Below, one piece after another: positions 3,428 through 48,940 of a stretch of DNA of 64,000 nt. Origin of the DNA: a virus (Duplodnaviria > Caudoviricetes). The translations under genes were made by a program, and so were the position numbers. Positions within the stretch are counted from its first letter, which is position 1, and every line of letters starts with the position of its first letter. The stretch is taken from positions 186,516 to 250,515 of the IMG/VR virus record IMGVR_UViG_3300014697_000001. One strand, written 5' to 3'. The notes under the pieces were generated by a model. That model saw nothing but the letters and a program-made list of their open reading frames with translations. It had not been told where the DNA came from and did no database searches.

Positions 3428-3469
3428 CTTCCATGGAGCACGGGGTCAATAGGCCCCGTGAAATAAACG

Positions 3470-5146: not shown

Positions 5147-5218
5147 GTTAGGGTGCCTGGGTCTGTCGGGGGTAATTCCCCGATAGGCCTGGGTATGCCT
5201 TGGGATTGAGGTCCATCA

Positions 5219-8740: not shown

Positions 8741-8790
8741 GATAAGTCCTGCTGTGAAAATCAAAGGTGAATATCATACCGATACGAATG

Positions 8791-8825
8791 GAATATTCTT
8801 CAACCCTACATGATCCAGGTGAATA
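8791..8825 (+). promoter_or_regulatory. Early-type phage promoter (TACAT-n-AT family)
   Basis: ATATTCTTCAACCCTACATGATCCAGGTGAA; the same motif recurs about 13 times upstream of genes. Confidence 0.65.
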
Positions 8826-8853
8826 TAACCCAAAATCGTAAGGAGATTTACCC

Positions 8854-9408
8854 GTGTCTACCCAACAAGATCTTTACGCCCCGAAGAACAACGACCGCTT
8901 TGATAACACAGCTTCCACGCTGATGCTGGAAAGCCATACCATCAAATCATCCATCGGTGGAGCCATTGGAGTACGTGAGATGCAAGGGACTTTAAGTAGC
9001 CGGATTCGTAGTCTGACCTGCGATGTAGTCGAAGGAATGACCCAGTACGAATGGCGCGCCAAGGCTATCAAGCACCCGGCATATCCGCTGATCTTTGAAG
9101 AACTTAAAGCCGCCCATGACTTCAAGATCCTTGATAAGGTCATGGATCAGCTGGAGGCCCTAGGATGCATTGTAACGTACGATCGGTCCACTGCCCAACT
9201 CACCGTAGGGTTGAACATCAATAACCTCTGTAAAGGCTTCACAGAGCGTATGACGATGGTGGATGTGCGTAACAAGCGACTCATTGATCAAGCCAATGGC
9301 ATTGGTCCTCTGGATCGGTTCATGGAACCCCAATCCAGGCTGCAAGCGGGCGACATCCAGATCAGTCCTACGTACTTTCTGACGTTCAACCTCAAGGACG
9401 ATCAGTAA
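8854..9408 (+). CDS. Hypothetical early protein
   Basis: 184-aa ORF, GTG start, AAGGAG RBS, downstream of the promoter motif. Confidence 0.8.
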   Translation: MSTQQDLYAPKNNDRFDNTASTLMLESHTIKSSIGGAIGVREMQGTLSSRIRSLTCDVVEGMTQYEWRAKAIKHPAYPLIFEELKAAHDFKILDKVMDQLEALGCIVTYDRSTAQLTVGLNINNLCKGFTERMTMVDVRNKRLIDQANGIGPLDRFMEPQSRLQAGDIQISPTYFLTFNLKDDQ

Positions 9409-14200: not shown

Positions 14201-14332
14201 AGTGGTCTCCTGTCTGTTTAAGAACCCATACACACGATTGGCCATTCAAATATTTCATGGACACACATTATCCATATGCTCGCGATCATAGCTTCATCAA
14301 CTAATCGCTCAACCCCAAAGAGGAAACACAAG

Positions 14333-15316
14333 ATGTCCCAAGGTCTTTCTACTCGTCCTGTCGGCCAAGTGCGTATCTATGCGTGTGGCGGTGGCGGCAT
14401 CAACATCGGTCGTGACTACCTGACCCCCGGTCATTCGGCAGACATTGCTGACTTCCAAGTGGCTTTCGTCGACACCTCCGACTCCAACCTCACCGACGGC
14501 CTGGAGAACAACACCTGGCTGTTCAAGGACCTCGACGGTTCCGGTAAGATCCGCAACAGCAACGACAAAGTAATTGCCAAGGCAGTGCCTGACATCCTGC
14601 GTAAGTTCGCTCCGGCTGACATGAACATCGTGATCTTCACGGCGTCGGGTGGTACGGGTTCGGTCGCCGGCCCGCTGATCCTCAAGCAGCTGCTGGAAGA
14701 CGGTCACCAGGCCGTCGGTATCGTCACCGGTTCTCACGAGTCCATCAAGACTGCCGAGAACACCATCGGTACCATCAAGTCGCTCGATGCCATCGGTCGC
14801 ATGACCAACAAGCCGGTGGTTATCCACTTCGGCATGAACCGTCCGAATGTGCCACGCTCCTCGATCGACCGTGAAGCCCACCTGATGATCAACGCCCTGG
14901 CAATCCTGTGCAGCCGCCGTAACCACGGCCTGGACACTGCCGACATCGCCAGCTTCCTGCAGTTCAACAAGTCGTCCGATATCCCGGCGTGCCTGGCTCG
15001 TATCCACCTGTTCGATGACATCGATCAGTTCGAGAAAGTCCTGACCGACCCGATCTCGGCTGCTTACCTCAAGCGCGAGCAGGATGATCCTCAGCCGAAT
15101 GTCTTCGTGCCTTACAGCTGCGATGGCTTCATGCCGTCGTTTGCTCAAACGTCGAAGAGCCTGTTCTTCGGTATCGAAAACCACTCCTTCGGTGCCCTGG
15201 CGCAGGAACTCGAAGGCCTGAAGAAGGAGATGGAGATGCAGCGTAAAACCCGCTCTCAAGCTGTCTCGTTCTTCAGTGACAGCGATGACGTGTCCACTAC
15301 CGGACTCGTGCTCTAA
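14333..15316 (+). CDS. phuZ: PhuZ tubulin/FtsZ-family spindle protein
   Basis: CGGGGINIG, VDTS, GSGK and tubulin signature SGGTGS, T7 loop LDTAD, acidic C-terminal tail. GAGGA RBS. Confidence 0.93.
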   Translation: MSQGLSTRPVGQVRIYACGGGGINIGRDYLTPGHSADIADFQVAFVDTSDSNLTDGLENNTWLFKDLDGSGKIRNSNDKVIAKAVPDILRKFAPADMNIVIFTASGGTGSVAGPLILKQLLEDGHQAVGIVTGSHESIKTAENTIGTIKSLDAIGRMTNKPVVIHFGMNRPNVPRSSIDREAHLMINALAILCSRRNHGLDTADIASFLQFNKSSDIPACLARIHLFDDIDQFEKVLTDPISAAYLKREQDDPQPNVFVPYSCDGFMPSFAQTSKSLFFGIENHSFGALAQELEGLKKEMEMQRKTRSQAVSFFSDSDDVSTTGLVL

Positions 15317-15384
15317 GCAATACACGACAGCGGGAGCAATCCCGCTGTCCTTATGCCGCCATCCCACATCTACGGAGACTCACC

Positions 15385-16087
15385 CATGTCCAAGCAAGAT
15401 TCCAACATTATCCTCGGCGTTGACGGTAAGCCGATGTACGAACTCGTCACCAAACCTCATCAGGAGCAGGCGTTCATTCATAAGCCCGTCTTCGGTAAGA
15501 TCAACTTGCTGCGTGTAGGTTTCCTGTCGCCGGTGCCGCCGCGTCATCTGAACAATGAGGCCTACATCCACGATTCCCGTCCGATTGCATGGCCACTGTA
15601 CCATCCTTACTGGATCGTCCGCATGTCTGACGATGCCAACATGCTGATGGCGTATGTCGAAGAAATCGAGCATGTCAAGCTGTACTGGCCGGAAGCAACC
15701 GAGGTGACCGTCTTCGAGGAGAACGTCACCCACTACTGCTTCAATAGTAACTTCCCTGAACCTATCTGGCTCAAGGACGTGCAAGACCCCAGTTTCCGGG
15801 TCGCACCACCCAAGACTGGCGCGTTCAAGATTACTGAACCTGAATCCGACCTGTCGATCATCGGCTTTAGCGACGACACCGATTACGATATTCAGCTCAA
15901 CTGCCACCAACTGGAATACGGTGTACATGAGCACGAGGCGTTCCAGCGCGAATACACCGACTGGACAGGACTCGAAGTCAACGTCTATGCGACCGAGACT
16001 CTGGAGGAAGCTGAAGCATATGCCCGTAAGCTTCTGAAGTTCGAGAATGCCGAAGACGGTAGCCTGCCTACCACCCTCCCACTCTGA
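15385..16087 (+). CDS. Fusion of a Trp/Pro-rich phage domain and an inactivated GIY-YIG-like domain
   Basis: N-part DSRPIAWPLYHPYW...YWPEA...FPEPIW. The C-part aligns by eye to the GIY-YIG domain at 48941 but lacks its catalytic residues. Confidence 0.7.
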
Positions 16088-16746: not shown

Positions 16747-16781
16747 CAGACCCCCATACCACCCTTTCAAGGACTTTGTCG

Positions 16782-16985
16782 ATGTGTACCACATTTGAAT
16801 GTGAGCGTTGCGGTAACGCTGATTCCATTCATGCCACCCCACAGACTGGAATCGGGTATGAATGTCATCGCTGCAAGACCGGCGAATGGCATCACCTTTT
16901 TCAAGAAACCCGATATAGTTTCGAAATCCACGGTCCTGCTTTGAACAAGGTCAATCCTGACAATTCGTTCACCAGCTTCAGCTGA
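16782..16985 (+). CDS. Small zinc-ribbon protein
   Basis: CERC...CHRC; AAGGA RBS. Confidence 0.7.
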   Translation: MCTTFECERCGNADSIHATPQTGIGYECHRCKTGEWHHLFQETRYSFEIHGPALNKVNPDNSFTSFS

Positions 16986-16989: not shown

Positions 16990-17038
16990 GTATAGAGGGA
17001 GGACCTAGGTCCTCCCTCTTACTTTTCTTTTTATGCCG
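16990..17038 (+). terminator. Hairpin terminator
   Basis: AGAGGGAGGACC-TA-GGTCCTCCCTCT, then a T tract and TATGCCG. Confidence 0.8.
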
Positions 17039-17091
17039 CCTCAAATACCGGTAAAAACGAACCGCCCGTCCTTATCTTCTGAGGGGGGCAC

Positions 17092-17442
17092 ATGACCATC
17101 CATTTAAACGCACCCAGCGTGCTCATATTCGACGTTTTTGCTTTAACCGATACCCTAGATAGGGGTGGGGAGTTCTCGCCTCTGGCGTGGCAATACGTCG
17201 TCGAGAGGGATCTGGTGGTTTTGGGTAATCTGACCGTTGTATCCAGCTACCCGAAGTGCCCATCTCTGACTGAGCAGTATCGACTTATTCAAGCCCTGCA
17301 AGCCAGGGATAACATCAACATTATCTCATCAATAGGTCAGGTACTCATGGAGCACTTGGCACAGTACGTCATTTCGATTGAGATGACGACAACCGAACTG
17401 ATTGTGACCAAACGAAAACTGGTGACGGGAGTAGTCGTGTGA
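17092..17442 (+). CDS. Hypothetical protein, tandem-array member 1
   Basis: 116 aa, GAGGGGG RBS; overlaps the next gene. Confidence 0.7.
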   Translation: MTIHLNAPSVLIFDVFALTDTLDRGGEFSPLAWQYVVERDLVVLGNLTVVSSYPKCPSLTEQYRLIQALQARDNINIISSIGQVLMEHLAQYVISIEMTTTELIVTKRKLVTGVVV

Positions 17443-18041
17443 AGTTCATCATAGTACCCTTTACTGAGTTGCTCGCATACATTGAGAGCACCCTGGATTT
17501 ATGGCCACACGGTCACAGACTACCAGAAGACAAGCGAGAGCGTGACAATCAGCTGACCCTTGCAGCCGGTGAACTCTGTAAGAACCTGATACTGCAGTCA
17601 GTCAAACATATTCGCAATAAGCCCGATCCGCTGGTCCAGCTGTTGCATGACTTGGGGTATCCGATCAAGTCCTTGTCGACAGAAGAACTCGATAACCTGA
17701 TGATGGAGGTAGATGATCATTACATCTATCTTACGGTCCTGTTCGATGCGGTTGACGACAAGGTGCAGCCGTACCTTGAACGTAAGGTCTTCACCATGGT
17801 CGTTGAAGATGAGGACGTCCTCATTGAGGTGACCGGAGATTTGATCAACCAGCGGTATCAGGCTCTCAAGCGTCGCTTGAAGGACCGTACCCCGCCGAAG
17901 ATCGGAGAAGATGAACTCAATACGCAAGCCATGGCTGAGTACATCGACCGGATGGTGGGTGAAGTCCTTGGCTCGGTCCAATCACCGGCCATGCGCGACG
18001 AACTGAAGCTGATCTTCGACCAGGCCATTAAACGCTACTAG
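17439..18041 (+). CDS. Hypothetical protein, tandem-array member 2
   Basis: 200 aa, GTGA start/stop overlap, GGGAG RBS. Confidence 0.75.
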   Translation: MKFIIVPFTELLAYIESTLDLWPHGHRLPEDKRERDNQLTLAAGELCKNLILQSVKHIRNKPDPLVQLLHDLGYPIKSLSTEELDNLMMEVDDHYIYLTVLFDAVDDKVQPYLERKVFTMVVEDEDVLIEVTGDLINQRYQALKRRLKDRTPPKIGEDELNTQAMAEYIDRMVGEVLGSVQSPAMRDELKLIFDQAIKRY

Positions 18042-18060
18042 CGCCCTAGAGGAGACTGAC

Positions 18061-18501
18061 ATGGCTCGGTATCTACTTGGTGCCAGCGAGCTTGAGCAGA
18101 ATATTGAAGCAATTGTCAATGAGAACCTCGGTGTCTGTTTTGCAGCCGAGGTGACCAATGCCATGCAGCGTCTGGTTGATAGTTATAACCATTGCCAGAC
18201 CGATGAGCTCCTTGATCGACTGGCAGCGCCCTGGACAGACTGGCTTGAAGATTACGCCCCTCTTGACCGTATTGTTGAAAGCTTCACCCAGCTTGTGGAA
18301 AGCTGTATAAACCCCACCACCGACATAGCCGTGCTGGACTACTTGCCCAAGGAAGAAACACTTGTAGTCACTCAGCAACCTAAGCCCGCCCCAGACCCGG
18401 TTAAACACCTGAAGGACGAATACCAGCATGCGACCATGCAAGGTGATTTCTACCCCGAACGGATACGTAGGGCTCTCGACGAACTGGCTGCGTACATTTA
18501 A
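18061..18501 (+). CDS. Hypothetical protein, tandem-array member 3
   Basis: 146 aa, GAGGAG RBS. Confidence 0.75.
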   Translation: MARYLLGASELEQNIEAIVNENLGVCFAAEVTNAMQRLVDSYNHCQTDELLDRLAAPWTDWLEDYAPLDRIVESFTQLVESCINPTTDIAVLDYLPKEETLVVTQQPKPAPDPVKHLKDEYQHATMQGDFYPERIRRALDELAAYI

Positions 18502-18919
18502 GCCCACGCCGTACAAGTACTCACAAGTCACTGTTGATCCAGGCCCCAACACGGTCCGGTATGTGATGGTCAATTCTCCCATGGACCATGATGAGTTCAA
18601 AATCCTGTACAGGCGCCTGGGTAAAATTGGTGTCATGGTGCCAATGGCCGAGATGGCCAACTGCGCCATGTCAGGCCTGAACGTCCTTGACACGCCTGCG
18701 GGCATGGCTTGGACCCGTCTGGTAGCCAGGGATGAGTATGCCAGACGTATCGATGAGATTAAACGTATCACTGAGAGACTCCATAAAGAATTTCATGGAG
18801 TGTTGTCATCCCAACCTTTCGCCTACAAGGTCGTCGAATATTGCGACGGCCTGATGGTATTGGAGGTTCGCGCCCGTGTCGACTGGGATAAGCTCAATTG
18901 CTATAAGGTTGCCATTTGA
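18428..18919 (+). CDS. Hypothetical protein, tandem-array member 4 (start uncertain)
   Basis: Fills the gap between its neighbours and overlaps both. Confidence 0.6.
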   Translation: MRPCKVISTPNGYVGLSTNWLRTFKPTPYKYSQVTVDPGPNTVRYVMVNSPMDHDEFKILYRRLGKIGVMVPMAEMANCAMSGLNVLDTPAGMAWTRLVARDEYARRIDEIKRITERLHKEFHGVLSSQPFAYKVVEYCDGLMVLEVRARVDWDKLNCYKVAI

Positions 18920-19331
18920 TGAGGCATTTTGGACGCTCGGTGAAACACTGGCCGAACGTCTAGGTGCCTCGGCACTCCTTTATGCCGCAATCGCCTATTA
19001 CGTGTTCGATGATTCGTTCTTCGCCGAAGACATCATCGATCACAACCCCGAACTTGCCGAACCCATCGTGGCATGGATGGAAGATCTCTATTGCACGTTC
19101 GGCAATATCCTTTCCCAACTTCGAGTCTACTATGCCAAAGACACGTTTCATTCTGAATCGGAATCAACCTACCAGTTGCTCAAAGTTAACTACGTCAGTA
19201 CCGACGAAGACCTCTACGTCAGTGCCACCTGCGATCCGCGCTATTATCACCTTGGAAACCAGTGGCGAGTTCTTAGTGAACTTGACACATGTGTTACAGG
19301 CCAGCGGCATGTCGCTGGAAGAGCTATTTGA
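18876..19331 (+). CDS. Hypothetical protein, tandem-array member 5
   Basis: GTG start with GGAGG RBS; acidic. Confidence 0.7.
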   Translation: MSTGISSIAIRLPFDEAFWTLGETLAERLGASALLYAAIAYYVFDDSFFAEDIIDHNPELAEPIVAWMEDLYCTFGNILSQLRVYYAKDTFHSESESTYQLLKVNYVSTDEDLYVSATCDPRYYHLGNQWRVLSELDTCVTGQRHVAGRAI

Positions 19332-19572
19332 ATACCTCTCCACCGCACTGTCCGATTACCGGCACGATCGCTTCCCGGAACAGGTCCTATTGAATTCGCG
19401 CTACCCCGATAGCTATTCGATGCAAATTCGAGAGCACCTGAGTCAGTTAATCGACCAGCTGAATGACCAAACGGAATTGATCCAACGGCAGGCCCAAGCT
19501 ATCCGCCTAATGGGGGTAAATCCTGATGATGATTCGGCCTACATTGAGATCGTCCCACTTCCAGACAAGTGA
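19222..19572 (+). CDS. Hypothetical protein, tandem-array member 6 (start uncertain; frame open from 18964)
   Basis: Sequence looks protein-like from GTG 19222 (VPPAIRAIITLE...). Confidence 0.6.
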   Translation: MPPAIRAIITLETSGEFLVNLTHVLQASGMSLEELFEYLSTALSDYRHDRFPEQVLLNSRYPDSYSMQIREHLSQLIDQLNDQTELIQRQAQAIRLMGVNPDDDSAYIEIVPLPDK

Positions 19573-19936
19573 CCGTCCAGCCCTCCCATTGGTGCTGATG
19601 GTCCCTGACAATAAGGAAGCCTTACAGTCCATCCCTAAACCACTGCTGCCCATCGCCGTTGTCTCAGCCATGCGAGGAGTTATTTACAACTGCCTCCCGG
19701 CTGAATATGGGAATGTATTGAGATTCTGGACAAGCTATAAGAACCCTGGCACCCGGTCCCGCGACCTCTCCACAGTTATGGTTCAGGCAGAAGAAGCATT
19801 CGAGTCCGTGGTAGAGATCCTTGCAGATCTCTCCGATCATTTGAGTCTATATAGCGACCAGGATCATTTAGTGATTGATTTGATCCGGTACGACCCTTAT
19901 GATCAAGGATTTGTAGTGAGAATATCCGATGGCTGA
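19526..19936 (+). CDS. Hypothetical protein, tandem-array member 7 (start uncertain)
   Basis: 136-aa ORF overlapping its neighbours. Confidence 0.65.
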   Translation: MMIRPTLRSSHFQTSDRPALPLVLMVPDNKEALQSIPKPLLPIAVVSAMRGVIYNCLPAEYGNVLRFWTSYKNPGTRSRDLSTVMVQAEEAFESVVEILADLSDHLSLYSDQDHLVIDLIRYDPYDQGFVVRISDG

Positions 19937-20264
19937 ACAAATTATCCTAATCGATGGGAGAGACATTTACAGGGATTTTCTTGACGACCTCTCACGGTTG
20001 ATGGACCATTCCTACGACTTTGATGAGATCTTCTCCTTATACGGCGACTGGGCGCGCCGTGGCGAGCATTTCGTTGACGAATTCGCGGCCGGATTGTTTC
20101 CACCTGACTTGGGCGAGACAGCCGATGATTTCGTGGGTCTGCGGAACGCCATGATCAACCTCTATTGTGCGGTGGATCGAGCCACCCGTGGACTGGATCG
20201 CCGATCCATTGTTCACATGGCTTACAGTGAACCTGACGAAACCATCGTAATCACCGCACGTTAA
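19929..20264 (+). CDS. Hypothetical protein, tandem-array member 8
   Basis: 111 aa, acidic. Confidence 0.7.
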   Translation: MAEQIILIDGRDIYRDFLDDLSRLMDHSYDFDEIFSLYGDWARRGEHFVDEFAAGLFPPDLGETADDFVGLRNAMINLYCAVDRATRGLDRRSIVHMAYSEPDETIVITAR

Positions 20265-20292
20265 ATCACCTTCCATTACATCATCGAGTGAC

Positions 20293-20592
20293 GTGATGAT
20301 CCTTATCGGCATTTCTGAAGTTATTGCTGAGTTACTTCCTGAGGTGTGCCATTCTATCGACCCGGACATCCCACCTTCATCTGACCTCCCCCTTGAGGTA
20401 CGCAAATACCTGCGTGCACTGCTCATGCGAGCGTTTCACCGCGCCCTGAGCGAGGAGTTCGCATTTGACATGAGGTGGGTGTTACAAGTGAAACAAGATG
20501 GATTACTCACCCAACTGAGCGATCGTCGCTGGATCGACGTCGAGGTGATGGACACAGATGGCACTTTCATTCTTACATTCGAGGATCTATGA
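20293..20592 (+). CDS. Hypothetical protein, tandem-array member 9
   Basis: 99 aa; its stop overlaps the next start. Confidence 0.65.
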   Translation: MMILIGISEVIAELLPEVCHSIDPDIPPSSDLPLEVRKYLRALLMRAFHRALSEEFAFDMRWVLQVKQDGLLTQLSDRRWIDVEVMDTDGTFILTFEDL

Positions 20593-20984
20593 CCATGATC
20601 ACCAATTACATCGGCTCCACTGTTAAGTTCGACACGGCTGCTCCGGCAGCCCTTGGCTCCAACCGCCAGAACGTCACCGTGTTGGCGGTTTTGGACTTGG
20701 ACACCGCGATGCTTCTGTCCGATGTGCGCGCCAAACACGCACAGGTCAAGAACTACATCACCGACCTACCGGGTAGCGCAGGAGCGTACAGCTACGTCAA
20801 GTTGCGCTACGGCAACGGTGAGGTTGAAGTCCTCGGTGTGCCATGGATTCGTCACGAAACCATCGAGGTAATCGACAACCGCGAGTTGTTCATCCGGGTC
20901 CGAAATGCTACCCCGTCCACTGAGAATATCATTCGACAGGCATTCTTGCAAAATGGGATCGAAGACTTTACATTTGAGGGCTAA
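20589..20984 (+). CDS. Conserved phiKZ-like protein (gp49-like by synteny)
   Basis: MTMITNY..., GAGGA RBS, VLGVPWI motif; just upstream of the DNA polymerase. Confidence 0.65.
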   Translation: MTMITNYIGSTVKFDTAAPAALGSNRQNVTVLAVLDLDTAMLLSDVRAKHAQVKNYITDLPGSAGAYSYVKLRYGNGEVEVLGVPWIRHETIEVIDNRELFIRVRNATPSTENIIRQAFLQNGIEDFTFEG

Positions 20985-21462
20985 ACGCCGGGTAAGCTAT
21001 CCCACCCGGTCCAACGACTTCATTCTCAGCCGCGACCCTAAGCGAGAAACCTTCCTGCTCTATTCGTTTGACGAGGCGTACTTCGATAAGTACGCCGAGT
21101 TCTACGATGCGGTTAAAGCCACCTTGCTTCGGTATGAAATACCCAATGAGATGGTCATGTGTCTTGAACACACCCTATCTCCCTCTGCCATGGTGGATGT
21201 CCTGATGCGCGAGCAGATGGGTAACACCGACATGACCGAGGCCATGATGGATGACATCTATGGATTGACAGACATTGACGACTGTGCATCAGACATCATC
21301 GAGCACGTGGTCAACCTCTGCAACTGTGGCGTTTTCCCGCAAGGTTTTGACAATGTCTGTGACCTCCTGAGGACCAACGAAGGCTTCTACTTGCTGGACT
21401 TCTACCCTGTCCGGGAAGAGGACACCATGGTGTATGTGGTGGCAAATGCTGACAGTGAATAA
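20953..21462 (+). CDS. Acidic hypothetical protein, tandem-array member 10 (start uncertain)
   Basis: Frame open 20905-21462; followed by a terminator at 21469-21508. Confidence 0.65.
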   Translation: MGSKTLHLRAKRRVSYPTRSNDFILSRDPKRETFLLYSFDEAYFDKYAEFYDAVKATLLRYEIPNEMVMCLEHTLSPSAMVDVLMREQMGNTDMTEAMMDDIYGLTDIDDCASDIIEHVVNLCNCGVFPQGFDNVCDLLRTNEGFYLLDFYPVREEDTMVYVVANADSE

Positions 21463-21526
21463 AAACAAAAGGAGCTCTCTCTATGAGAGCTCCTACTTAT
21501 TTCTTTTTCCCCAATTTTAAGGCCGA

Positions 21527-23812
21527 GTGATGGAAAATCCATTTGTTCTTCCCAAAGACCAGTACACGCGCGACCTAGATCTGCTTAAAGGTTATTTCGA
21601 TCAGAATATTCACTTTCTCACGACCATGACAGGTCAGCCCGAAGAGAAAGCCATGAATTTCCTTAAGCGAACCCTGTCGCGTGGTGGTGACTTCCCGCTC
21701 CGTGACCCGAACATGCTGGTCTTGAAGCAAGAAAGCCCAGGTAATCGCGTCAAGGACGAAATGACCCTGCTGACCTACGTCAAAACAGTGACCGATAGCA
21801 AGCGCATCCTGTCGCCGTCAATGGTCTGCTATGAAAACCCCGAAGTGCTTAAGTCTCCGTCTGCCATTTTCGTTGAGAAAGGCATTGCCGGCCGTAAGAA
21901 AGCCAAGACCGAGATGTTTTACGCCAAGGTAGCCGGGGATGAAGTCCTTGAAAAGATCAAGGATGCGGAACAGAACGCCAAGAAGATCGGTATCAACTCC
22001 CTCTCTGGCATGCATGGCTTCTCCGGTAACATCCTGTACATTAAATCCGGCCACTCCAGCCTGACGTCGATGTGCCGGGCGGCAACTGGATACGGCAACG
22101 CCAACAACGAACGCCTTCTGGCCGGGTCGAGGCATTACCACACCCCGACTATCGCTTTGGCCAATATGCTTTCACTGGTCACCACTCAGCCGCACGACGT
22201 TTTCGAAGCGGCCATGGAAAAATGCGGGCTGGTCTACCCCACTGTCGAGCAAACGGCTGACTGTATTCGCCGCAGTACTGACCTGTACTGGCGTAACGCG
22301 GGACAATTCCAGAAAATCATTGACTACATCGCGCGCATCACCCCACTGGAACGTGCCATCATCGTTTATACCGGTGATCTGTACCACATCGCCCAGTACA
22401 ACGATGGTTTTGTTCGCACCATGATGGACAAACTGATCAAGTATGACCCGGCTTCAGACGCCACTGTGATCGAGGACCCGTACGCTATTCTGACGGGTAA
22501 GACATTCGACGGTGATCTGCTGATGCTGGCCACCTACCTCAATGCCGACCTTACCAAGGGGGAGAACTTTGACTCCCTCAAGGATAAAGGCCTGACCGAC
22601 GTACTGGCAAAGGTGGCGAAGACGGCGTATCATGTCCAAGGAGTCCTGGAGGAGTACTTTACCTTTATCCGGGTGTTCCTCACTCCGGTGGGTCTGACTC
22701 CAACGGTGGCCAACATCAAAGGCATCCTGCGACGCAGCGTGCTGGCTTCCGATACTGACTCGACCATTTTCACCACTCAGGAATGGGTGACGTGGTACAC
22801 CGGTACCGACCGGCGGACAAGGGAAGGTGACGGCATTTGGTACGCCACGACGTTCATTGCCTGTCAGTGCATCGTGCATGTGTTGGCTAAATTGTCAGCG
22901 AACATGGGGGTGATCCAGCAGGACCTGCATCGGTTGACCATGAAGAACGAATACGCCTTCCCTGTATTCACCCTGACCAGCCGTGCCAAGCACTACTACG
23001 CATTCATGTCGGCCCGTGAGGGTAACGTCTATAAGGACTACGACATGGAGATCAAGGGCGTGGCGTTGCGGTCATCCACAGTGCCTCCGACTATCATCAA
23101 GGCAGCTAAAGGTCTGATGAAGGAAGTCATGACCCGTGCCGATGAAAACCGACAGTTCACCCTAGAGGAAGTCTATCAGATCGTCTGGCGGTATGAGCAG
23201 GACATCTATACCTCGATCAAGAAAGGTGAGCACCGCTACCTGAAGTCAGCTCAGATTCAGGAGTCGTACGCCAACATGAACAAGGACGATCCGTACAAGG
23301 AGAAGACCAACTACCGACACTACCTGATGTGGGAAGATATCTTTGCCCCCAAGTACGGTCATGTAGAGTCCCCACCCTTTACGGTCATTAAGGTCCCGCT
23401 GGCAGTAAATAACAAGACTGACATGCAGACCTGGTTCAAACACTGCGACTCCATCGACCCTGAATTTGGGGCTCGTCTGCGCAACTACTGCGTCCTGTCG
23501 GAGCGTGAGCAGATCAGCACCCTGATGCTGCCACTGTCTATCCTGTCGGGGACCGGAATGCCCGACGAAGTCATGGCGATGATCGACATCCGTCGACTGA
23601 CCTATGGTATCCTGGAGTCGTTCTACATGATCCTTGAGTCTCTTGGAATCTTCCAGGTCGACAGCAAGTACGTCAGGCTCATCAGTGACATCTATACCCC
23701 GAGCGGCGAAATCAATCTGCAGCCTTCGCCAACAGATGCCAACAGCACACTGGAGGACGATGATGACGATGATTTGTTCGAGGACGACGATGAAGACTGG
23801 CTTCTCCTTTAA
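21527..23812 (+). CDS. Family-B DNA polymerase, polymerase-domain subunit (phiKZ gp50-like)
   Basis: Motif B KIGINSLSG, motif C ASDTDS, KHYY, EIKGV; no N-terminal exonuclease domain recognised. Confidence 0.88.
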   Translation: MMENPFVLPKDQYTRDLDLLKGYFDQNIHFLTTMTGQPEEKAMNFLKRTLSRGGDFPLRDPNMLVLKQESPGNRVKDEMTLLTYVKTVTDSKRILSPSMVCYENPEVLKSPSAIFVEKGIAGRKKAKTEMFYAKVAGDEVLEKIKDAEQNAKKIGINSLSGMHGFSGNILYIKSGHSSLTSMCRAATGYGNANNERLLAGSRHYHTPTIALANMLSLVTTQPHDVFEAAMEKCGLVYPTVEQTADCIRRSTDLYWRNAGQFQKIIDYIARITPLERAIIVYTGDLYHIAQYNDGFVRTMMDKLIKYDPASDATVIEDPYAILTGKTFDGDLLMLATYLNADLTKGENFDSLKDKGLTDVLAKVAKTAYHVQGVLEEYFTFIRVFLTPVGLTPTVANIKGILRRSVLASDTDSTIFTTQEWVTWYTGTDRRTREGDGIWYATTFIACQCIVHVLAKLSANMGVIQQDLHRLTMKNEYAFPVFTLTSRAKHYYAFMSAREGNVYKDYDMEIKGVALRSSTVPPTIIKAAKGLMKEVMTRADENRQFTLEEVYQIVWRYEQDIYTSIKKGEHRYLKSAQIQESYANMNKDDPYKEKTNYRHYLMWEDIFAPKYGHVESPPFTVIKVPLAVNNKTDMQTWFKHCDSIDPEFGARLRNYCVLSEREQISTLMLPLSILSGTGMPDEVMAMIDIRRLTYGILESFYMILESLGIFQVDSKYVRLISDIYTPSGEINLQPSPTDANSTLEDDDDDDLFEDDDEDWLLL

Positions 23813-23821
23813 AGGTGCACC

Positions 23822-24049
23822 ATGATAAACTCTCCATTGTTTGCCGCCACTGAGCTCAGCGGTATCTTCTCAAATCACGCAGGATCGAAAAGGCCAAAGA
23901 CCCGTTCGATCACCGTGAAACATGGGTTCACCAGCACCACCGTTGAAATCCCAGAGGTGGTTGAGCTTGATGAATTGCTGAGTATCTTGGGACACTCGGT
24001 GAGACCACTTGACAGTGACTTGTCAGAGGTTCTCTTGGCCATGACATAA
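23822..24049 (+). CDS. Small hypothetical protein
   Basis: 75 aa, AAGGTG RBS, followed by a terminator. Confidence 0.55.
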   Translation: MINSPLFAATELSGIFSNHAGSKRPKTRSITVKHGFTSTTVEIPEVVELDELLSILGHSVRPLDSDLSEVLLAMT

Positions 24050-24053
24050 GCCA

Positions 24054-24091
24054 GACGGCATAAGGAGGGGCCTCAGCCCCTCTCTATGTCC
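24054..24091. terminator. Bidirectional hairpin terminator
   Basis: GACGGCATA-AGGAGGGGC-CTCA-GCCCCTCTC-TATGTC, between convergent genes. Confidence 0.75.
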
Positions 24092-25198
24092 TTATAGGTA
24101 AGGTTCGATGTGTTCGGCTATAAACCCGGCCACATAGTCGGCAACATTGGCCGGTACCTGGTTGACCAGGTACTTTCCAGACTGTGCTTCCTTAAGGCTT
24201 CGACGGATACGGTTTTTATCCGAATCGTTCTTGGCGTTAGAGCTTACTGCATCGAACTTAAGCAACATGGCAATGACTGGGAGTCTCGCGATGGTCAGCG
24301 CCCAGATCGCCTGGTTGGTGTAAGCAATGTCGGGCATCCGGACTGTCTGAAGCAGGTTGTCCTGACCGAACACGGGAGTGTTACTCAGGATGTCCTTGTA
24401 GAAGCTGGTCTGACTGCTGAACTTGTTGACAATTTCACCCAACCCCTTCGTCAAGCGAGGCCAGAGGTCTGTGGTGAAGAACGGCATCGCCGAATCGATC
24501 TTGGTGTACTGCTCAGCTCCCAGCAAATGATGCGTGGTGTTGAGAACTGCCACATCCAGATGACTGGATAGCATATTCGGGATGATGACTTGTGTGATAA
24601 AATGAGCAGCCGGCAGGGTATGGCCTTCAGGGGCCATGGTGCGCACCGCCATGCGCCAGAGATGATACTGACAGGCCAACAGCGGGATGTTCAATTCCAG
24701 CACGCTCATGGCGCCGTCGGGAAGCCCCTTGAACTCGGCTGTCCCATCTAGCTCAATGATACCACACCCCATCACCGGATGGCTCAGGACCCGAATGGGT
24801 GACATGTCCCGCCAGCCAAACCAGATCTGTGCTGGTGTCAGGTTATCATCGGTCACAGCGATGATGATCTCATTGACTCCCTTGCCGTAGAACTGACTCT
24901 TGGTATTGACTCGTCCGTGGTGGGCTGCGTTGCAGAAACCCATTTGTCCAGCCAGTCGGTTAACGATACTGCTGACTTGTAGATAATAGTCGGGGAGATC
25001 ACCGTCAAATGGAATGTCGATCAGGCCGAGGATCTTAAGGAGTACATGGTCACTTTTGAGGTAGCCTGGGTTCATTGCCCGGTACTGTTTATAGCGCTCT
25101 ACCTGAGTACCCATCAGTTCACGCTTGACGTAATCCAGCCCGAAGACCGTGGTGTTCGTCTGGCGCAACAGCTGGTCGGAGTTAAAAAGCGTGTACAT
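24092..25198 (-). CDS. Conserved phiKZ-like protein (gp52-like by synteny)
   Basis: About 368 aa, AAGGA RBS; divergent from chimallin and located between it and the polymerase. Confidence 0.7.
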   Translation of the reverse strand: MYTLFNSDQLLRQTNTTVFGLDYVKRELMGTQVERYKQYRAMNPGYLKSDHVLLKILGLIDIPFDGDLPDYYLQVSSIVNRLAGQMGFCNAAHHGRVNTKSQFYGKGVNEIIIAVTDDNLTPAQIWFGWRDMSPIRVLSHPVMGCGIIELDGTAEFKGLPDGAMSVLELNIPLLACQYHLWRMAVRTMAPEGHTLPAAHFITQVIIPNMLSSHLDVAVLNTTHHLLGAEQYTKIDSAMPFFTTDLWPRLTKGLGEIVNKFSSQTSFYKDILSNTPVFGQDNLLQTVRMPDIAYTNQAIWALTIARLPVIAMLLKFDAVSSNAKNDSDKNRIRRSLKEAQSGKYLVNQVPANVADYVAGFIAEHIEPYL

Positions 25199-25507
25199 GA
25201 TGATGGAGTCCTTGGGTAAAAGTCTAATCTCAAAGGATTGGCCGAACATGACAAATAGTAAAAAATAACTACCATTCCCCTATTGTATAGGAGATGTGCT
25301 CCTGACAGAGTTTTCACTCTGTCGCCAAGGGAGGGTATTTCCTTTTCCTGTGGATCACGTCGTATTTTTAAACGCAACCGTCGGATTGTACGAGCCTAGG
25401 AATTAGAATTCCATTCAAACAATTCATGGCGCTATATAATCCACGTGAATATCCCTACGATGTTCACTAGGCCTAGTAAACAACGAAACCCCTCCAAGGA
25501 GTACACC

Positions 25508-27418
25508 ATGGCAGTTCAAGATAGCCACGACAACAGCAACAACTCTCAGGCACAGGACCCGTCCTACGAACCGGCTAACAGCCGTTCGTCCCGTCCGACC
25601 CCTCAGGAAAACCCGGTCCTGAACGCTGGTCTGCTGGATATCAACCGTCTGCTCGGCAGCCCGATGTCCCGTCGCACCAGCGGTGAATCCCTGGTCAACG
25701 CCATCAAGGCCGCTAAGTTCTGGTTCTCGGCCGAGCGTCAAGTAGCCGGTGCCGCTGCCATCGACCTGACCAAGATCCAAGTGCTGGGTCTGGACGGTCA
25801 GGAAAACAACGTCAGCATCTCCTCGGTGATCCTGGCGTACCCGATCGAAGATCAGGGCGTTACCAAGGTACTGGTTCACTCGCTGGTGCTGGAAGGCACG
25901 CTGAGCGACGAAACCCCGATCCGCAACGTCGAGATCAACCATCGCACCTACCCGCTGCCGATCATCGCTTCGGATTACGTGACCGAGTCGTACCTCGCCC
26001 TCATCGACGACATCGTCAAGAAGGCATTCGACCAGTCCCGTCGTTCCGTCGAAGTGATCCGTGGCGGCTGGCGTGTGGTTGACCGCAAGGTCGACTTCAA
26101 CGATCCGGAAACTACCGAAGCGCGTCAGGTCATCTTCTACGCGCAGGCGGCTCTGTCCTCGATGTACAACGAGCTGTACCGCAACGACATGTTCTTCAGC
26201 CTCGAGTGGCTCAACAAGCAGTCTACCCTCGAGATCAACGTCGACATGTCCGGCCGTGAAAGCGTCTCCGCCGACGGTCTGCCCCGCCGCAGCGACATCG
26301 CGGTATCGGTTGCAGGTACCGTTCGCAAGGGCGACCAGAACGTCACCGTGCCTCTGGCCAACCTGGGCGGTTACATGAACATCGTGTACACCCCGCCGCA
26401 GAACGAAGAGCGTTGGGCTCGTGACCGTCGTCGCGATCAGCCGTACTTCACCCCGACGTACATCATCAACCGCATGGACACCAGCGGCAACGCCATCACC
26501 CCGGAGCTCCTGCTCCTGGCACTGGCATCGTCCTCGGTGATCTCCAAGAACCAAGCGTGGGCCCGTACCTTCCTGCCGGGCGAAGTTGCCCGTGGTGAGA
26601 TCGATGCTCGCGACAGCGGTCTGCTGAACATTCTCGGCCCGGATGAAGATCCGCAACCGATCGTGTTCGACAACCGTGGTTCGCTGGACGAAGAGAAGTG
26701 GGGTCAGTACTTCTTCAGTCTGGTCGATGAAAACCTGGTATACGCAATCGAGCTGGAAGAAGGTGGCGACAACAGCTGGCTGACCAGCCTGCTGCTGGAT
26801 GCTGCAGACGACACTTCGGCCAACCGCGAAGCTGTTCGCCGTCTGTACGACTACGCTGACCGCCTGACTTCGGGCAACTTCAGCCGTCGTGCTCAAGAGC
26901 TGGGCGTAGAAAACCCGCTCGTGATGTCCGGTGCCCGTTACCTGACTGGTACCTGGCTGGACGAGAAGGGCAACGAGCGCGATCTGCGCGAATGGGACCT
27001 GCTCCGTTGGATGGCGCAGAACCCGAACGATGGTGGTGAAAGCGCCCTGCGTTATCAGGACGTGATCGACCGCACTGACCTGGACGTGGAAATCCGCGTA
27101 TCTGAGCAGTTCGACCAGCTGACCGGCGCCCTGCAGCAGAACGTCAAGTTCTCCCGCTACGTCGACCTGGCCTTCATCAACCCGCACTTCATCGAAGCGC
27201 TGGCACTGGCGGTGGCCGATTGCAAGATCAACATCGATCAGCGTCAAGCTCACTTCACCTTCGGTGCTCGTCGTCTGCGTGGCAACACTCGCATTCGCGA
27301 CTTCCGTGGTGGCGATCTGACCCACGGTCTGCTGAACAGCCGTCGTGTGGTTAATGGCGATCAGCGCAGCCTGCGCAGCCATGTGAGCAACGGCTTCGGT
27401 CGCGGTTCGTCGTTCTAA
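25508..27418 (+). CDS. chmA: Chimallin, phage nuclear shell protein (phiKZ gp54-like)
   Basis: 636 aa with very strong high-expression codon bias, AAGGAG RBS and low-complexity termini. Lies directly upstream of the NADFDGD nvRNAP subunit in a phuZ-encoding genome. Confidence 0.85.
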   Translation: MAVQDSHDNSNNSQAQDPSYEPANSRSSRPTPQENPVLNAGLLDINRLLGSPMSRRTSGESLVNAIKAAKFWFSAERQVAGAAAIDLTKIQVLGLDGQENNVSISSVILAYPIEDQGVTKVLVHSLVLEGTLSDETPIRNVEINHRTYPLPIIASDYVTESYLALIDDIVKKAFDQSRRSVEVIRGGWRVVDRKVDFNDPETTEARQVIFYAQAALSSMYNELYRNDMFFSLEWLNKQSTLEINVDMSGRESVSADGLPRRSDIAVSVAGTVRKGDQNVTVPLANLGGYMNIVYTPPQNEERWARDRRRDQPYFTPTYIINRMDTSGNAITPELLLLALASSSVISKNQAWARTFLPGEVARGEIDARDSGLLNILGPDEDPQPIVFDNRGSLDEEKWGQYFFSLVDENLVYAIELEEGGDNSWLTSLLLDAADDTSANREAVRRLYDYADRLTSGNFSRRAQELGVENPLVMSGARYLTGTWLDEKGNERDLREWDLLRWMAQNPNDGGESALRYQDVIDRTDLDVEIRVSEQFDQLTGALQQNVKFSRYVDLAFINPHFIEALALAVADCKINIDQRQAHFTFGARRLRGNTRIRDFRGGDLTHGLLNSRRVVNGDQRSLRSHVSNGFGRGSSF

Positions 27419-29039: not shown

Positions 29040-29663
29040 ATGGCTATTGCAATGTATGCGGACGAGTCGGAATTTCGGTCGATGCACTATGGGCTTCCGA
29101 AGTCAGAGGACCGGGCTGCCATTCGAAGCCGACTGGAGAACACAGCACGTTCCTTCGGGTTGATGGGCAGTGACCTGTATAACCGCGCCGTTGAGCGATT
29201 CGAGTCGTTTGACTTTGATCGCATCGAGCGCAAGGTCGATGCACTGAAACGTAAAGTCACCCACCTCTTCGACAAGGATTCCATCCGCCCGATGTCGAAG
29301 ATTGGTCAATTCCAGCAAGCCGGCCCGGAACAGGCTCGCTGGCTCATGGCCAACCCACGGGCAAAGCAGTTGTTTGAGAAGGACATGATGAATGGCTGGA
29401 GGGGTTTCCTCAAGCATGAAAATCGTGGCCGGATCGGCGAAGATGACCCTGATTACCAGGAAGTCACTAACGGACTGCTGCAATTCGATGAGCACGGCCA
29501 CTCCAAGTTCGTCGAGTACTTGCATCTGTATGACTCTGATGGACGGACTCAGTTGACGTTTGCCGACCAGGTCACCATCCGTGACTCCATGTGGGCCAAT
29601 TTCAACACCTTCCTCGATGAAGGTTTGGACGACCCGAGTGATCCGGATAACGGCTCGCTTTGA
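29040..29663 (+). CDS. Conserved nucleus-block protein (gp59/Imp3-like by synteny)
   Basis: 207-aa ORF following the nvRNAP subunit; ends in acidic DDPSDP. Confidence 0.55.
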   Translation: MAIAMYADESEFRSMHYGLPKSEDRAAIRSRLENTARSFGLMGSDLYNRAVERFESFDFDRIERKVDALKRKVTHLFDKDSIRPMSKIGQFQQAGPEQARWLMANPRAKQLFEKDMMNGWRGFLKHENRGRIGEDDPDYQEVTNGLLQFDEHGHSKFVEYLHLYDSDGRTQLTFADQVTIRDSMWANFNTFLDEGLDDPSDPDNGSL

Positions 29664-34382: not shown

Positions 34383-35948
34383 ATGCAGATCAATGTACAG
34401 GACATGTCCAGCAAAGGGATCTCCATGCTTCGTTTGGAGCACGGCGACAAAACTCTCATGCTGTCGGCTGGAAGTTACTACTCGGCTGCTATCATCAACC
34501 GCGAAATCTTGTTCAAGGAGACCAACGAGTTCATCGCCACCCTACCTGAGGCCGACCAGACCCGCTTGTGGGATCTGTACGTGCGCTCTGCCGAACTTTT
34601 GATGTCCGAGGAAATCCGTTCCTCGTTCCTGGTCCGTGGCGAAATTGAAGCCATCACCAAGGAAATCTACACCATCGTCACCTACCCAGCGCTGCGCAGC
34701 TTCATTGACCGCGCAGGCCTCGTTGTGCCCTCGGATGTTTCTGACAAGTTCGAAGAACACAATGAGTTCGGGAGAAACTACCGCCGTAGCCGCACGTATA
34801 TTCGTTCCGACTACATGGACATGGTTGCACTCGCTCTGGGTCTTCGCTTCATGGTGCCGATCTGGGGCATGTACATCCAGAACGTCGCTCCGATCAATGG
34901 CAACGGCTATAAGGAGTCGGAAGCGGTTAAGTTGATCGAACTGGCTGGACTGGATAAGTGGCCGCCTTATCTGCGCATGGTCGAGTACATCGAAGCCAGC
35001 GTGGATAACGATATCAGCATGACCATGGTCATGGCAGGCCTTTCGAGTGAAGAGGTACCTCGCCACCTGATGTCGATGGCCCTGGTGCGTAAGATCTCCA
35101 TTGGTCCACTGTCCACTCCGGTGGAGCAGAACTCGTTGGCCCGAATTCTGTTCAACTACGTGACTGGTACTGCCATCCGCATGGACGGTCGTTTCCAGTC
35201 GGTAACCGGTGTGGTTCAAGCCAAGCGTCGTCGTTCCATGGACATGTCCGATGAGGATAACTCCTCGGTGTGGGATGACTACAGCCAGGCAACTGAGATC
35301 TCGGAAGGTGATCGACAGGTCATCGAGATCTACACGGAAGGGGTGGAGCACATCGTGGCTCGGATGGCGCCTAATCTGCCCATCGGGCGAGTTGAGCAGT
35401 GCATCTCGATCTGTTCGCGCCATGACACCCGTCCAATCGAGCCGTTCCAGAAAGCCTTGGTGTTCTGGGTTATCCGCACCATCAGTCCCGAAGCCCGCGA
35501 GCTGCTGCAAAAGCTGACGCATTTCCGCCTGATGGGCATTGCCCAAGCCATCCTAGATCATTGGGGGTTCCACGAACTGGCCATCCTGGTGGCAGCCGAA
35601 CAATTCATCGATGCCGACGGTGAATCGTTCATGCCCATGGAGACCCGGAACAAGATCACCCGCCAACAAGCGGAGGTCCTTGACAAGCAATACCCTCACT
35701 ACCGACAAGAGACAAAGCGCCAAGAACCCGGCAAACGGTCCAACGTGGCGGTCATTGCGATCGACATGGTAGTGGACTGGATGTCAGGTAAGGCGTGGAA
35801 GCCTCATGCACCCAGAGACATCATCGAGAAGATCCCCATGCTGGCGCAGACCGGCCACATGTACATCTCCGGTGACATCAAACGTCAACTTGCCGACATG
35901 ATCATTCATGTCAATCAACTACTTGGGAGTCAACATGGAACTAATTGA
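34383..35948 (+). CDS. nvRNAP promoter-specificity subunit (gp68-like, sigma-like)
   Basis: 521 aa, GAGG RBS, own TACATTAT promoter motif at 34307; assigned by synteny and size. Confidence 0.75.
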   Translation: MQINVQDMSSKGISMLRLEHGDKTLMLSAGSYYSAAIINREILFKETNEFIATLPEADQTRLWDLYVRSAELLMSEEIRSSFLVRGEIEAITKEIYTIVTYPALRSFIDRAGLVVPSDVSDKFEEHNEFGRNYRRSRTYIRSDYMDMVALALGLRFMVPIWGMYIQNVAPINGNGYKESEAVKLIELAGLDKWPPYLRMVEYIEASVDNDISMTMVMAGLSSEEVPRHLMSMALVRKISIGPLSTPVEQNSLARILFNYVTGTAIRMDGRFQSVTGVVQAKRRRSMDMSDEDNSSVWDDYSQATEISEGDRQVIEIYTEGVEHIVARMAPNLPIGRVEQCISICSRHDTRPIEPFQKALVFWVIRTISPEARELLQKLTHFRLMGIAQAILDHWGFHELAILVAAEQFIDADGESFMPMETRNKITRQQAEVLDKQYPHYRQETKRQEPGKRSNVAVIAIDMVVDWMSGKAWKPHAPRDIIEKIPMLAQTGHMYISGDIKRQLADMIIHVNQLLGSQHGTN

Positions 35949-37413
35949 TATCGTTTTTCGTGAGCGTTCGGGCTATCGCGAGATGCAGCTGCGACCCTTC
36001 GACGCTGATGCCACGGGCGATCTCATCCGCCAGCTGAACGAAGACACCTCCGGCGGCAGTGACCTGACCCCGGCGGCATTGAGCCGTACAGCTGGGCGCA
36101 TCATCCGTCCAGCCGCCAACGTCAGCGGCAGCGCCCTGATCAGTAATGGCTGGGGTGAAAAGCGCTTCATGTTCATCATGACCGTGCTGGTTCGTGAAGC
36201 TCGTGGTTCCCGTTCCACAGTGGAGATCACCGGACACACAGACCATGCCGATGCAGCCAATACCCTGCGTGGTGTTCGTCTGCCTGACGACATGTGCCTG
36301 TACTTCAACTCGATCACCGAGGTGAACCAAGCGTATCTGGACACCCCGACGCAACGCGGCTGGTGCACCCAGATTGCCGGTTCTCACCACGTGATCGGTC
36401 CACAGACCCGTCCGAACTTCACCCGTGATCGTCTGTCTCCAGGCACAATGACCATGCGCCCCGAGGACGTGTTCCGGAACAACCCGAAGAACATTCTACA
36501 GAACAGCTTCAGCCGACTGGTTGAACGTGAAAGTGATTACCAGGACCTGCGCAACAGCTTCACCAGTGACTCGCTGCGTCTGTCCAACCGCTGGAATGAC
36601 TCCTCTACCCGTTACCTGCACCGCTCCATCAAAGCGCTGGCAGTGGCCAATCAGGGCGAACAGTACGGCGAGGGTATGAGCCTTGAACGTGATCCTGGCG
36701 AGATTCTCAAGGATGCCCGTAAGCAGGTTCGTGAACGTACGGTGAGCCAGATGTCAGTGTTCGCAGACTTCAACCGGGATACCAACATCCTGAGTCAGGG
36801 TTTCATCACCTACGGTGAGCTCTGTGCCATGAACCCGGACTTTGCCTGGGACGATGTCAAGGTGTTCTTCGAGCGTCCGGAGACTGCCCGTGATTATGCC
36901 ACCACCACCAGCAAATGGGATGGGCGGGATAACACCACGATCGCGGCAATTCAGATCGCCCGTGCACTGCCGACGTACATGGCGTTTCACCACATTGCTT
37001 TCATCGACTTTGAAGCAAACAACATGTCCTACGCCGGACAGCCCGTCATCCTCATTCCAGAAGTCCTGCCGATCCTCGGCAAGGCCATCAACCAGAATGC
37101 GCTTCAGGCGTTTGAGCAGCGCCTGATCACCGAGCTGTTTGTGGACATGCTCCCGTGGGAAGACTGCATGTTTGACCTGCGGGTTAAAGCCACGCTCAGT
37201 GGCGATGTAGTCATCAGCATCAAACTGGAAGGGGAAGATCCGGGTGAGTTTGCCTTCCCGGTGTTCTGTGACTCCCTGGTGGCTCCAGTGGTCGTCGACG
37301 ATTCGTCGTGCATCGACCGGATGAGCAAAACGCTGACCAACATCGTAGACCGCATTGGCGGCGACGATCACCTCAGCAACGAAATTATCACTGACAGCAG
37401 CTGTCGCTTTTAA
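35935..37413 (+). CDS. picA: PicA/Imp1 nuclear protein-import factor (gp69-like)
   Basis: 492 aa, overlapping the gp68-like stop. Contains NGWGEKRFMF and MRPEDVF; assigned by synteny. Confidence 0.7.
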   Translation: MELIDIVFRERSGYREMQLRPFDADATGDLIRQLNEDTSGGSDLTPAALSRTAGRIIRPAANVSGSALISNGWGEKRFMFIMTVLVREARGSRSTVEITGHTDHADAANTLRGVRLPDDMCLYFNSITEVNQAYLDTPTQRGWCTQIAGSHHVIGPQTRPNFTRDRLSPGTMTMRPEDVFRNNPKNILQNSFSRLVERESDYQDLRNSFTSDSLRLSNRWNDSSTRYLHRSIKALAVANQGEQYGEGMSLERDPGEILKDARKQVRERTVSQMSVFADFNRDTNILSQGFITYGELCAMNPDFAWDDVKVFFERPETARDYATTTSKWDGRDNTTIAAIQIARALPTYMAFHHIAFIDFEANNMSYAGQPVILIPEVLPILGKAINQNALQAFEQRLITELFVDMLPWEDCMFDLRVKATLSGDVVISIKLEGEDPGEFAFPVFCDSLVAPVVVDDSSCIDRMSKTLTNIVDRIGGDDHLSNEIITDSSCRF

Positions 37414-48875: not shown

Positions 48876-48940
48876 CGTGAAAGATTTTATGGCGATACAT
48901 TACTAACATGATCGACCTACCGATCAAATAAGGAATAGAA

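Follow-up and report, generated by a model that had tools for sequence, protein, structure and literature searches.

An old, positionally fixed array of ten small genes, probably same-fold paralogues, in a predicted operon upstream of the DNA polymerase gene of a nucleus-forming jumbo phage

Which proteins are admitted to the nucleus built by nucleus-forming jumbo phages is an open question; PicA (Imp1) is the core importer, and three cargo-specific helpers are known (Imp2, Imp4 and Imp5), all from phiKZ and, in the accessible portions of the sources, said to be confined to close relatives. Imp2, the product of phiKZ orf47, is needed for Nlp1 and is itself imported through Imp1; Imp4, the product of orf48, is needed for import of the host protein TopA, and the two emerged from selections with different cargos (accessible text of 10.1101/2024.03.27.586873). 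Both have been termed cargo-specific adaptors (accessible text of 10.64898/2026.09.21.753271), and the accessible text of PMC12676376 gives no disruptive transposon insertions for either. The gene order in phiKZ is gp43, 44, 44.1, 45, 46, 47, 48, SH3DP (gp49) and polymerase. Here, the corresponding interval of another jumbo phage was analysed in a stretch of 64,000 nucleotides (the window; positions 186,516 to 250,515 of IMG/VR record IMGVR_UViG_3300014697_000001), in which ten small open reading frames (ORFs), called o1 to o10, occupy positions 17092..21462 upstream of the DNA polymerase gene. An earlier note, made from the sequence alone, had described them as an expanded, fast-evolving tandem array of diverged paralogues and possible nuclear import adaptors; it had rightly placed them in the interval that holds phiKZ Imp2 and Imp4, with the two gene numbers interchanged relative to those given above. 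We read the locus as an old array, fixed in position, whose genes are probably paralogues with one fold and lie in one operon before the polymerase, and put the probability of this reading as a whole at about 0.5.

All ten ORFs were found on the + strand where they had been described, although the array of ten left uncounted an eleventh gene, SH3DP, between o9 and o10. Relatives were sought in 13, then 80, IMG/VR stretches around relatives of the polymerase, together with Pseudomonas phage pPa_SNUABM_DT01 (hereafter DT01), PhiPA3 and phiKZ (83 loci, 75 of them anchored on SH3DP). The ten ORFs were taken as real, conserved genes because a single syntenic relative of each was present, with gene order unchanged, in 20-27 of the 83 loci, and because no second copy of any of them was found in the phage's own 250-kb genome. 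The ten genes evolve fast, as had been claimed: median identities computed against 13-14 clade relatives ranged from 30% (o10, the most diverged) to 55% (o8), compared with 64% for SH3DP, 65% for the tubulin PhuZ and 78% for the polymerase. The term 'expanded' did not hold, since no lineage-specific duplication of the ten was seen and every member is one-to-one across the clade; if they are paralogues, the ten copies are old and fixed in order. Duplication does occur in the interval, not among this clade's ten: two ORFs like u2 stand in tandem at 3104-4408 of locus L012, and two gp48-like ORFs lie side by side at about 8110-9020 in each of loci L031 and L032.

Several members reach beyond the clade. 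The o5 family was found in 40 and the o8 family in 44 of the 75 anchored loci, including more distant clades, at matching positions in clades with 40-54% polymerase identity. Counterparts of o1 and of o2 plus o3 were found at corresponding positions in other clades, the o1 family matching that of the gene preceding gp43 homologues (f21; hhalign 76%, 97 columns); for o9, the family of the gene before SH3DP in another clade (f22) gave hhalign 14% over 95 columns. Fast evolution is typical of phage-host interface genes, and small early and middle genes cluster in many large phages; the ten could on these grounds be unrelated orphan genes of mixed functions, for example in host takeover or counter-defence, with the likeness of o5 and o8 being a widespread alpha/beta arrangement of small proteins that arose convergently. 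Unlike accessory orphan genes, they keep their order and one-to-one orthology across clades, and the structural and motif evidence given below also bears on this explanation, which we regard as unlikely.

The ORFs are packed or overlapping along the array, and positions 17092-21462 are a predicted single transcription unit of ten genes plus SH3DP between two predicted terminators on the + strand. One terminator-like RNA hairpin (16994..17019; 11-bp stem, T-rich tail) marks the end of the upstream unit, 72 bases ahead of o1, and another (21470..21494; 10-bp stem, T-rich tail) lies 8 bases past the o10 stop codon. Three terminator-like sites were found on the + strand between 14000 and 24500, these two having by far the longest stems; they are the only such sites on that strand from 16994 to 24204, with none between 17019 and 21470. 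The total number of sites (9) was not above the shuffled expectation (8.5), and the case for the operon is therefore based on how long the stems are, where they lie and how well the hairpins are conserved. T-tailed hairpins of 9-13 pairs occur upstream of the o1 orthologue in 17 relatives out of 18 and downstream of the o10 orthologue in 18 out of 23, with differing stem sequences in both cases. In many relatives the hairpin that follows o10 has a similar centre (GCTCT-ATTAT-GAGC type) and a varying outer stem; it might also serve as a signal for the polymerase gene, which begins about 30 bases on. A k-mer search for promoter motifs in 105 upstream regions returned only T-rich terminator tails, and a sigma-70 scan was at background (8 found, 7.8 expected).

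An operon placed in this way could instead supply replication accessories of the polymerase, such as loaders, tethers or regulators, with the import phenotypes of gp47 and gp48 being secondary. There are 65 bases from the end of the unit to the polymerase gene, and the unit contains SH3DP, which is named for its association with polymerases; the neighbourhood is kept in 75 of 75 anchored loci, and Imp2 is itself imported into the nucleus, the site of replication, according to the accessible text of the phiKZ import study. We nevertheless find this explanation improbable. Between the operon and the polymerase gene stands a strong terminator-like hairpin. Slow evolution is the rule for core replication proteins (78% identity for the polymerase, compared with the 30-55% seen here), no nucleic-acid-binding or enzyme family was detected among the ten in Pfam or PHROG, and nine of the ten are acidic (isoelectric point (pI) 4.3-5.2). 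In addition, a phage PCH45 gene whose product is described as an SH3 family protein is non-essential according to the accessible part of its source.

The claim that the members have one layout (an N-terminal strand, helices and a late beta-hairpin with a mostly acidic turn) was followed up with AlphaFold2 for o5 (18876..19331; 151 amino acids (aa)) and o8 (19929..20264; 111 aa), the families with the deepest alignments (29 and 33 rows, respectively). The o8 model was confident (predicted local distance difference test (pLDDT) 91.5, predicted template modelling score (pTM) 0.84) and consists of a strand (residues 4-9), helices at 11-21, 31-36, 38-44, 46-56 and 62-85, and strands at 94-100 and 105-110. 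The o5 model (pLDDT 78.6, pTM 0.72) has a strand at 5-11, helices at 14-17, 21-29, 31-43, 48-56 and 58-92, and strands at 100-107 and 112-118; its tail (131-151), which overlaps the start of o6, is disordered. The two predicted folds are not unrelated: both models have the same order of elements, a strand, four to five helices of which the last is long, and a C-terminal beta-hairpin that completes a three-stranded sheet with free edges. Their predicted strands coincide with the N-terminal strand and late beta-hairpin that had been named beforehand. The strands named for o4, o7 and o10 lie 44, 22 and 50 residues into their ORFs.

Searching the BFVD database of predicted viral protein structures with the o8 model returned its DT01 orthologue first (E 8e-14), followed by weak matches (E 0.006-0.2, template modelling score (TM) 0.25-0.70) that were almost all small uncharacterised jumbo-phage proteins, often several per phage. 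The o5 and o8 models share 22 of their best 50 targets, and the targets of the o5 model include the o8 orthologue from DT01 (rank 18, E 0.073) and, at rank 11 (probability 0.30), a DT01 protein of 202 aa, which is the length of the o2 orthologue. Nearly all named targets come from jumbo phages with the divergent polymerase or from known chimalliviruses. Targets were assigned to genes from phage name and protein length rather than from sequence; on this basis nine of the nine checked against annotation match in length a gene between PhuZ and the polymerase, namely all four from Psa21 (305, 165, 183 and 126 aa, equal to PSA21_39, _40, _42 and _44), both from Noxifer (118 and 167 aa; NOXIFER_39 and _41), both from RP12 (180 and 144 aa; ORF008 and ORF010) and the one from Eowyn (123 aa; gene _84). 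A 128-aa protein of 201phi2-1 was also a neighbour of o8, as a poor match (probability 0.57, root-mean-square deviation (rmsd) 12.9); contig L036, which we take to be 201phi2-1, has an ORF of the same length directly before SH3DP. No solved relative of the fold was found. At least o5 and o8 appear from the models to share one fold that recurs in the same interval of other chimalliviruses, and its recurrence several times per genome in that interval points to a very old tandem duplication, which would have been followed by divergence beyond recognition at the sequence level.

Two other assignments of o8 were set aside. Feature matches in the ESM Atlas included two Gp6-like_1st baseplate clusters (0.96), but the 147-149 shared features correspond to chance or a distant relation and Pfam gave no such match; the other ESM Atlas feature match was to a viral uncharacterised cluster. 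For o3, the ESM Atlas gave no usable match. The Pfam family Imm71 scored 15.7 bits (E 0.017), under its cut-off of 27, with no other support.

The free edges of the three-stranded sheet in both models, the tight packing of the unit, with stops overlapping starts throughout, and the gene order fixed across clades would also suit a single heteromeric complex, in which edge strands pair between subunits and the operon keeps synthesis in step. Obligate subunits usually co-evolve slowly, whereas identities here are 30-55% with widely differing rates; conservation in distant clades is confined to o5 and o8, and in phiKZ, according to the accessible text, Imp2 and Imp4 came from selections with different cargos. 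Such a complex therefore seems highly improbable to us, although both it and the replication explanation are compatible with an adaptor role.

For the other eight proteins, a 20-column matrix built from the beta-hairpins of o5 and o8 was scanned over every protein, with 139 other ORFs of at most 260 aa from the same genome, taken with a crude greedy ORF picker, as background. The best site of the matrix was the previously named late beta-hairpin in seven of the eight (o2, o3, o4, o6, o7, o9 and o10), which argues against the ten being unrelated orphans. The p-values were 0.007 for o4, 0.05 for o3, 0.058 for each of o2, o9 and o10, 0.35 for o6 and 0.55 for o7, so that five of the eight were at or below 0.058 and o1, o6 and o7 above it. 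When the matrices were rebuilt leaving out one family at a time, five of the ten reached p<=0.03 in the first round. Taken together, we read these results as a weak but probably real family likeness for most of o2-o10, and o1 is the weakest candidate for the shared layout; we consider it rather probable that a majority of the other eight have the o5/o8 fold. A propensity-based secondary-structure predictor was too poor to be used (three-state accuracy (Q3) 0.53-0.60 on the two models).

Compared with phiKZ, the array is colinear in several respects. The gp43 family (357 aa in phiKZ; PhiPA3 gp039, 201phi2-1 gp75) occupies the same place in the array as o2 (17439..18041; 200 aa), which is colinear with its N-terminal half (hhalign 78%, E 1.8e-5, 205 columns). 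The next gene, o3 (18061..18501; 146 aa), is the counterpart of the C-terminal half: the o3 family matched o3far at 95%, gp43 matched o3far at 70%, and gp43 and o3 matched directly at 11-28% (all hhalign), with a shared terminal GD-aromatic-x-P-E-R motif and reciprocal sub-threshold hmmsearch matches (E 0.017-0.06). One gene of this family is present in 41 loci of other clades and two genes, o2 and o3, in 20 of 20 loci of this clade; on the sequence comparison, o2 and o3 look like a split gp43, or gp43 like a fusion. Six genes follow both o3 and gp43 before SH3DP is reached, which pairs o8 with gp47 and o9 with gp48 in position only.

Imp2 (gp47; PhiPA3 gp044) is accordingly encoded by the second gene before SH3DP, as o8 is here, and is longer (178 aa, compared with 111 aa for o8). 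A 178-aa protein of phage SL2, taken from its length to be the SL2 orthologue of gp47 (98.9%), is a BFVD neighbour of both o8 (probability 0.75, TM 0.52) and o5 (probability 0.77, TM 0.36), and o5 has a further, weak neighbour in a 183-aa protein of Psa21; PSA21_42, which has that length, holds a tblastn match to gp47. All 56 records with tblastn relatives of gp47 came from Pseudomonas phages. Imp4 (gp48; 127 aa) is encoded directly before SH3DP, as is the 99-aa o9. SH3DP (PF20287), to which the eleventh operon gene clearly belongs, is an SH3-fold domain tied to phage DNA polymerases and differs in fold class from the ten.

A number of results weigh against a family of same-fold paralogues that includes the phiKZ adaptors. 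Within the array, the best blastp E-value between any two members was 0.5, jackhmmer did not cross from one member family to another, and hhalign between positions (975 of 1711 family pairs computed) did not exceed 21%; no pairwise or profile homology among the ten is convincing in itself. The best pairs were o6 with o10 (21%; 16-21% over 101-189 columns), o5 with o7 (14%), o8 with o6 (8%), o5 with o10 (6%) and o3 with o7 (5%). An early value of 39% between o5 and o8 dropped, as the profiles were deepened, to 3%, 1.7% and 0.8%, and a deeper o8 profile, made from the o8 alignment and 63 of 65 cluster representatives (two longer than 200 aa omitted), brought no gain (9% with o6, 0.8% with o5). 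Among 22 array families of other clades, hhalign merged only families at the same position. The median hhalign score was higher for the 45 pairs among the ten (15.8) than for the 190 pairs with flanking-gene families (12.1; Mann-Whitney p 3e-10), an excess that speaks against unrelated orphans, but the pairs are not independent and shared composition may contribute. As for the models, they cover two of the ten members, apart from the orthologue they yielded weak BFVD matches (E 0.005-0.3, TM 0.24-0.70; rmsd >10 in some), and the target identities depend on phage name and length.

The beta-hairpin matrix has limits of the same kind. Its effect is modest for each single protein, o1 misses the beta-hairpin (p 0.82 with the o5 and o8 matrix, 0.56 with one family left out), and later leave-one-out rounds drifted (o2 0.14, o5 0.19, with o10 choosing another site). 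A strand, helices and a beta-hairpin with an acidic turn are moreover a common pattern of small proteins, and the idea that the beta-hairpin is the best-conserved part of each family was dropped, holding in four of ten only (conservation rank 3-13 in o4, o7, o9 and o10, middling in the other six). The matrix found nothing significant in phiKZ gp40-gp49, which include gp43-gp48. The profile comparison with phiKZ that the earlier note had proposed was successful for gp43 and not for the two adaptors: jackhmmer with gp47 reached 15 loci and with gp48 17 loci, none of them in this clade (for gp47, nor in this genome), and hhalign against each of the ten families gave 0.1-0.4% for gp47 and at most 2.7% for gp48.

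These negative results, the lack of a meaningful Pfam or PHROG match for any of the ten, the failure of o1 in the motif test, the basic o4 and BFVD TM values mostly of 0.3-0.6 are what would be expected of unrelated orphans. The 22 shared structural neighbours of o5 and o8, located in the same interval of other phages, would not be, and we retain the reading as an old array of probable same-fold paralogues. In that reading the ten would be an old gene battery of fixed order, each with its own line of one-to-one orthologues and not a recent copy, colinear with phiKZ gp43-gp48 (o2 and o3 as a split gp43, o8 at the place of gp47/Imp2, o9 at that of gp48/Imp4). One small fold, a strand, four to five helices and a C-terminal beta-hairpin, would be common to o5, o8 and probably most of o2-o10.

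As accessory proteins directed to the nucleus, the members might each license one cargo at PicA/Imp1; such a mode of action, like that of Imp2 and Imp4, is a tentative suggestion by analogy, from position and likeness of fold only. If genes at the same place in a distant clade share a fold with each other and with Imp2, the known helpers would be one old family in all these phages, and about ten candidates per phage would be available for localisation and import assays, together with a fold to solve, for which o8, small and confidently modelled, is the best candidate. A broader proposal, distinctly doubtful at present, is that every chimallivirus keeps 6-11 ancient same-fold paralogues, their order fixed, in the interval between tubulin and polymerase, including Imp2 and Imp4 in phiKZ, as a cargo-selection layer whose fast divergence drives import incompatibility between phage species. 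Each paralogue would then license its own client or clients at PicA/Imp1, and divergence of the array would set which proteins enter, including those of a co-infecting relative. A description of such a family was not found in the literature searched, which mostly excluded subscription papers.

The phage was assigned to the nucleus-forming jumbo phages of the chimallivirus kind because homologues of PhuZ, the polymerase, SH3DP, chimallin, Imp3 (gp59) and PicA/Imp1 are present. The PhuZ-type tubulin is encoded at 14276-15316 (Tubulin/TubZ_C Pfam matches) and the divergent family B DNA polymerase at 21527..23812 on the + strand (PF20286, E 1.5e-219). Homologues of chimallin (25445-27415), Imp3 (29040-29660) and phiKZ gp69 (PicA/Imp1; 35908..37410, + strand) were found by phmmer with phiKZ proteins (E 1.2e-39, 6.1e-13 and 1.1e-21 for PicA/Imp1, Imp3 and chimallin, respectively). 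By its polymerase, the nearest named phage was DT01 (79.7%), with the next below 40% (306 matching records), and megablast found no near-identical DNA for the region among named phages. In the DT01 annotation eight of the ten positions are annotated, the counterparts of o5 and o7 being missing.

As to the individual genes, all on the + strand, o1 (17092..17442; 116 aa, pI 5.2) and o2 have a single orthologue per locus in 20 loci. The sole basic member, o4 (18428..18919; 163 aa, pI 9.2), overlaps the end of o3 by 74 bases, and its ATG is kept in 10 of 10 aligned rows. After o5 and o6, o7 (19526..19936; 136 aa, start possibly later) has a single orthologue per locus in 23 loci. The slowest-evolving and most widespread member is o8, for which 65 cluster representatives at E<=1e-3 were found among 1.84 billion. 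The gene directly before SH3DP, o9 (20293..20592; 99 aa), was found in 25 loci. SH3DP itself (20589..20984; PF20287 E 1.2e-22, phrog_3235, 75 loci) matched at 80.2 bits against a Pfam gathering cut-off of 25 (ORF 20475-20984); its ATG at 20589 overlaps the o9 stop codon (ATGA), with GAGGA 3 bases upstream. Between SH3DP and the polymerase, o10 (20905..21462; at most 185 aa, start at 20905, 20953 or later; 24 loci) occupies a place at which phiKZ has no annotated gene. The starts of o6, o7, o10 and perhaps o4, taken as the longest ORFs, are doubtful.

The start of o6 (19243..19572; conserved part about 109 aa) is uncertain, the ORF opening at 18964. In the overlap of o5 and o6 (19231-19280), a block of about 33 bases is near-invariant in 11 aligned phages and corresponds to a conserved peptide in two frames (HLGNQWRVL in o5, IITLETSGEFL in o6); where bases in it vary, they are in keeping with third codon positions in the frame of o6. 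The conserved N-terminus of o6 has no ATG or GTG in the phage of the window. A GTG stands directly before IITLE in 5 of the 11 aligned sequences, and some other relatives have an ATG 12 codons upstream of IITLE, arising from the Asp-Glu-Asp codons of o5. For the phage of the window, a rare start codon, TTG at 19252, GTG at 19276 or a frame change are candidate explanations for the start of o6.

Upstream of the array, a 244-aa ORF after PhuZ (u1; 15353-16087), without a Pfam or PHROG match, has two more relatives within the genome (jackhmmer E 1e-19 and 1e-13), one of them at 48932-49579. A 69-aa ORF (u3; 16776-16985) with two Cys-x-x-Cys pairs and weak zinc-ribbon Pfam matches was found in 45 loci, a far wider spread than that of most array genes. 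In phage RP12 (locus L103), a 605-aa gene at 5186-7003, far larger than anything there in the other phages compared, lies between the small-gene array and the gene before the polymerase.

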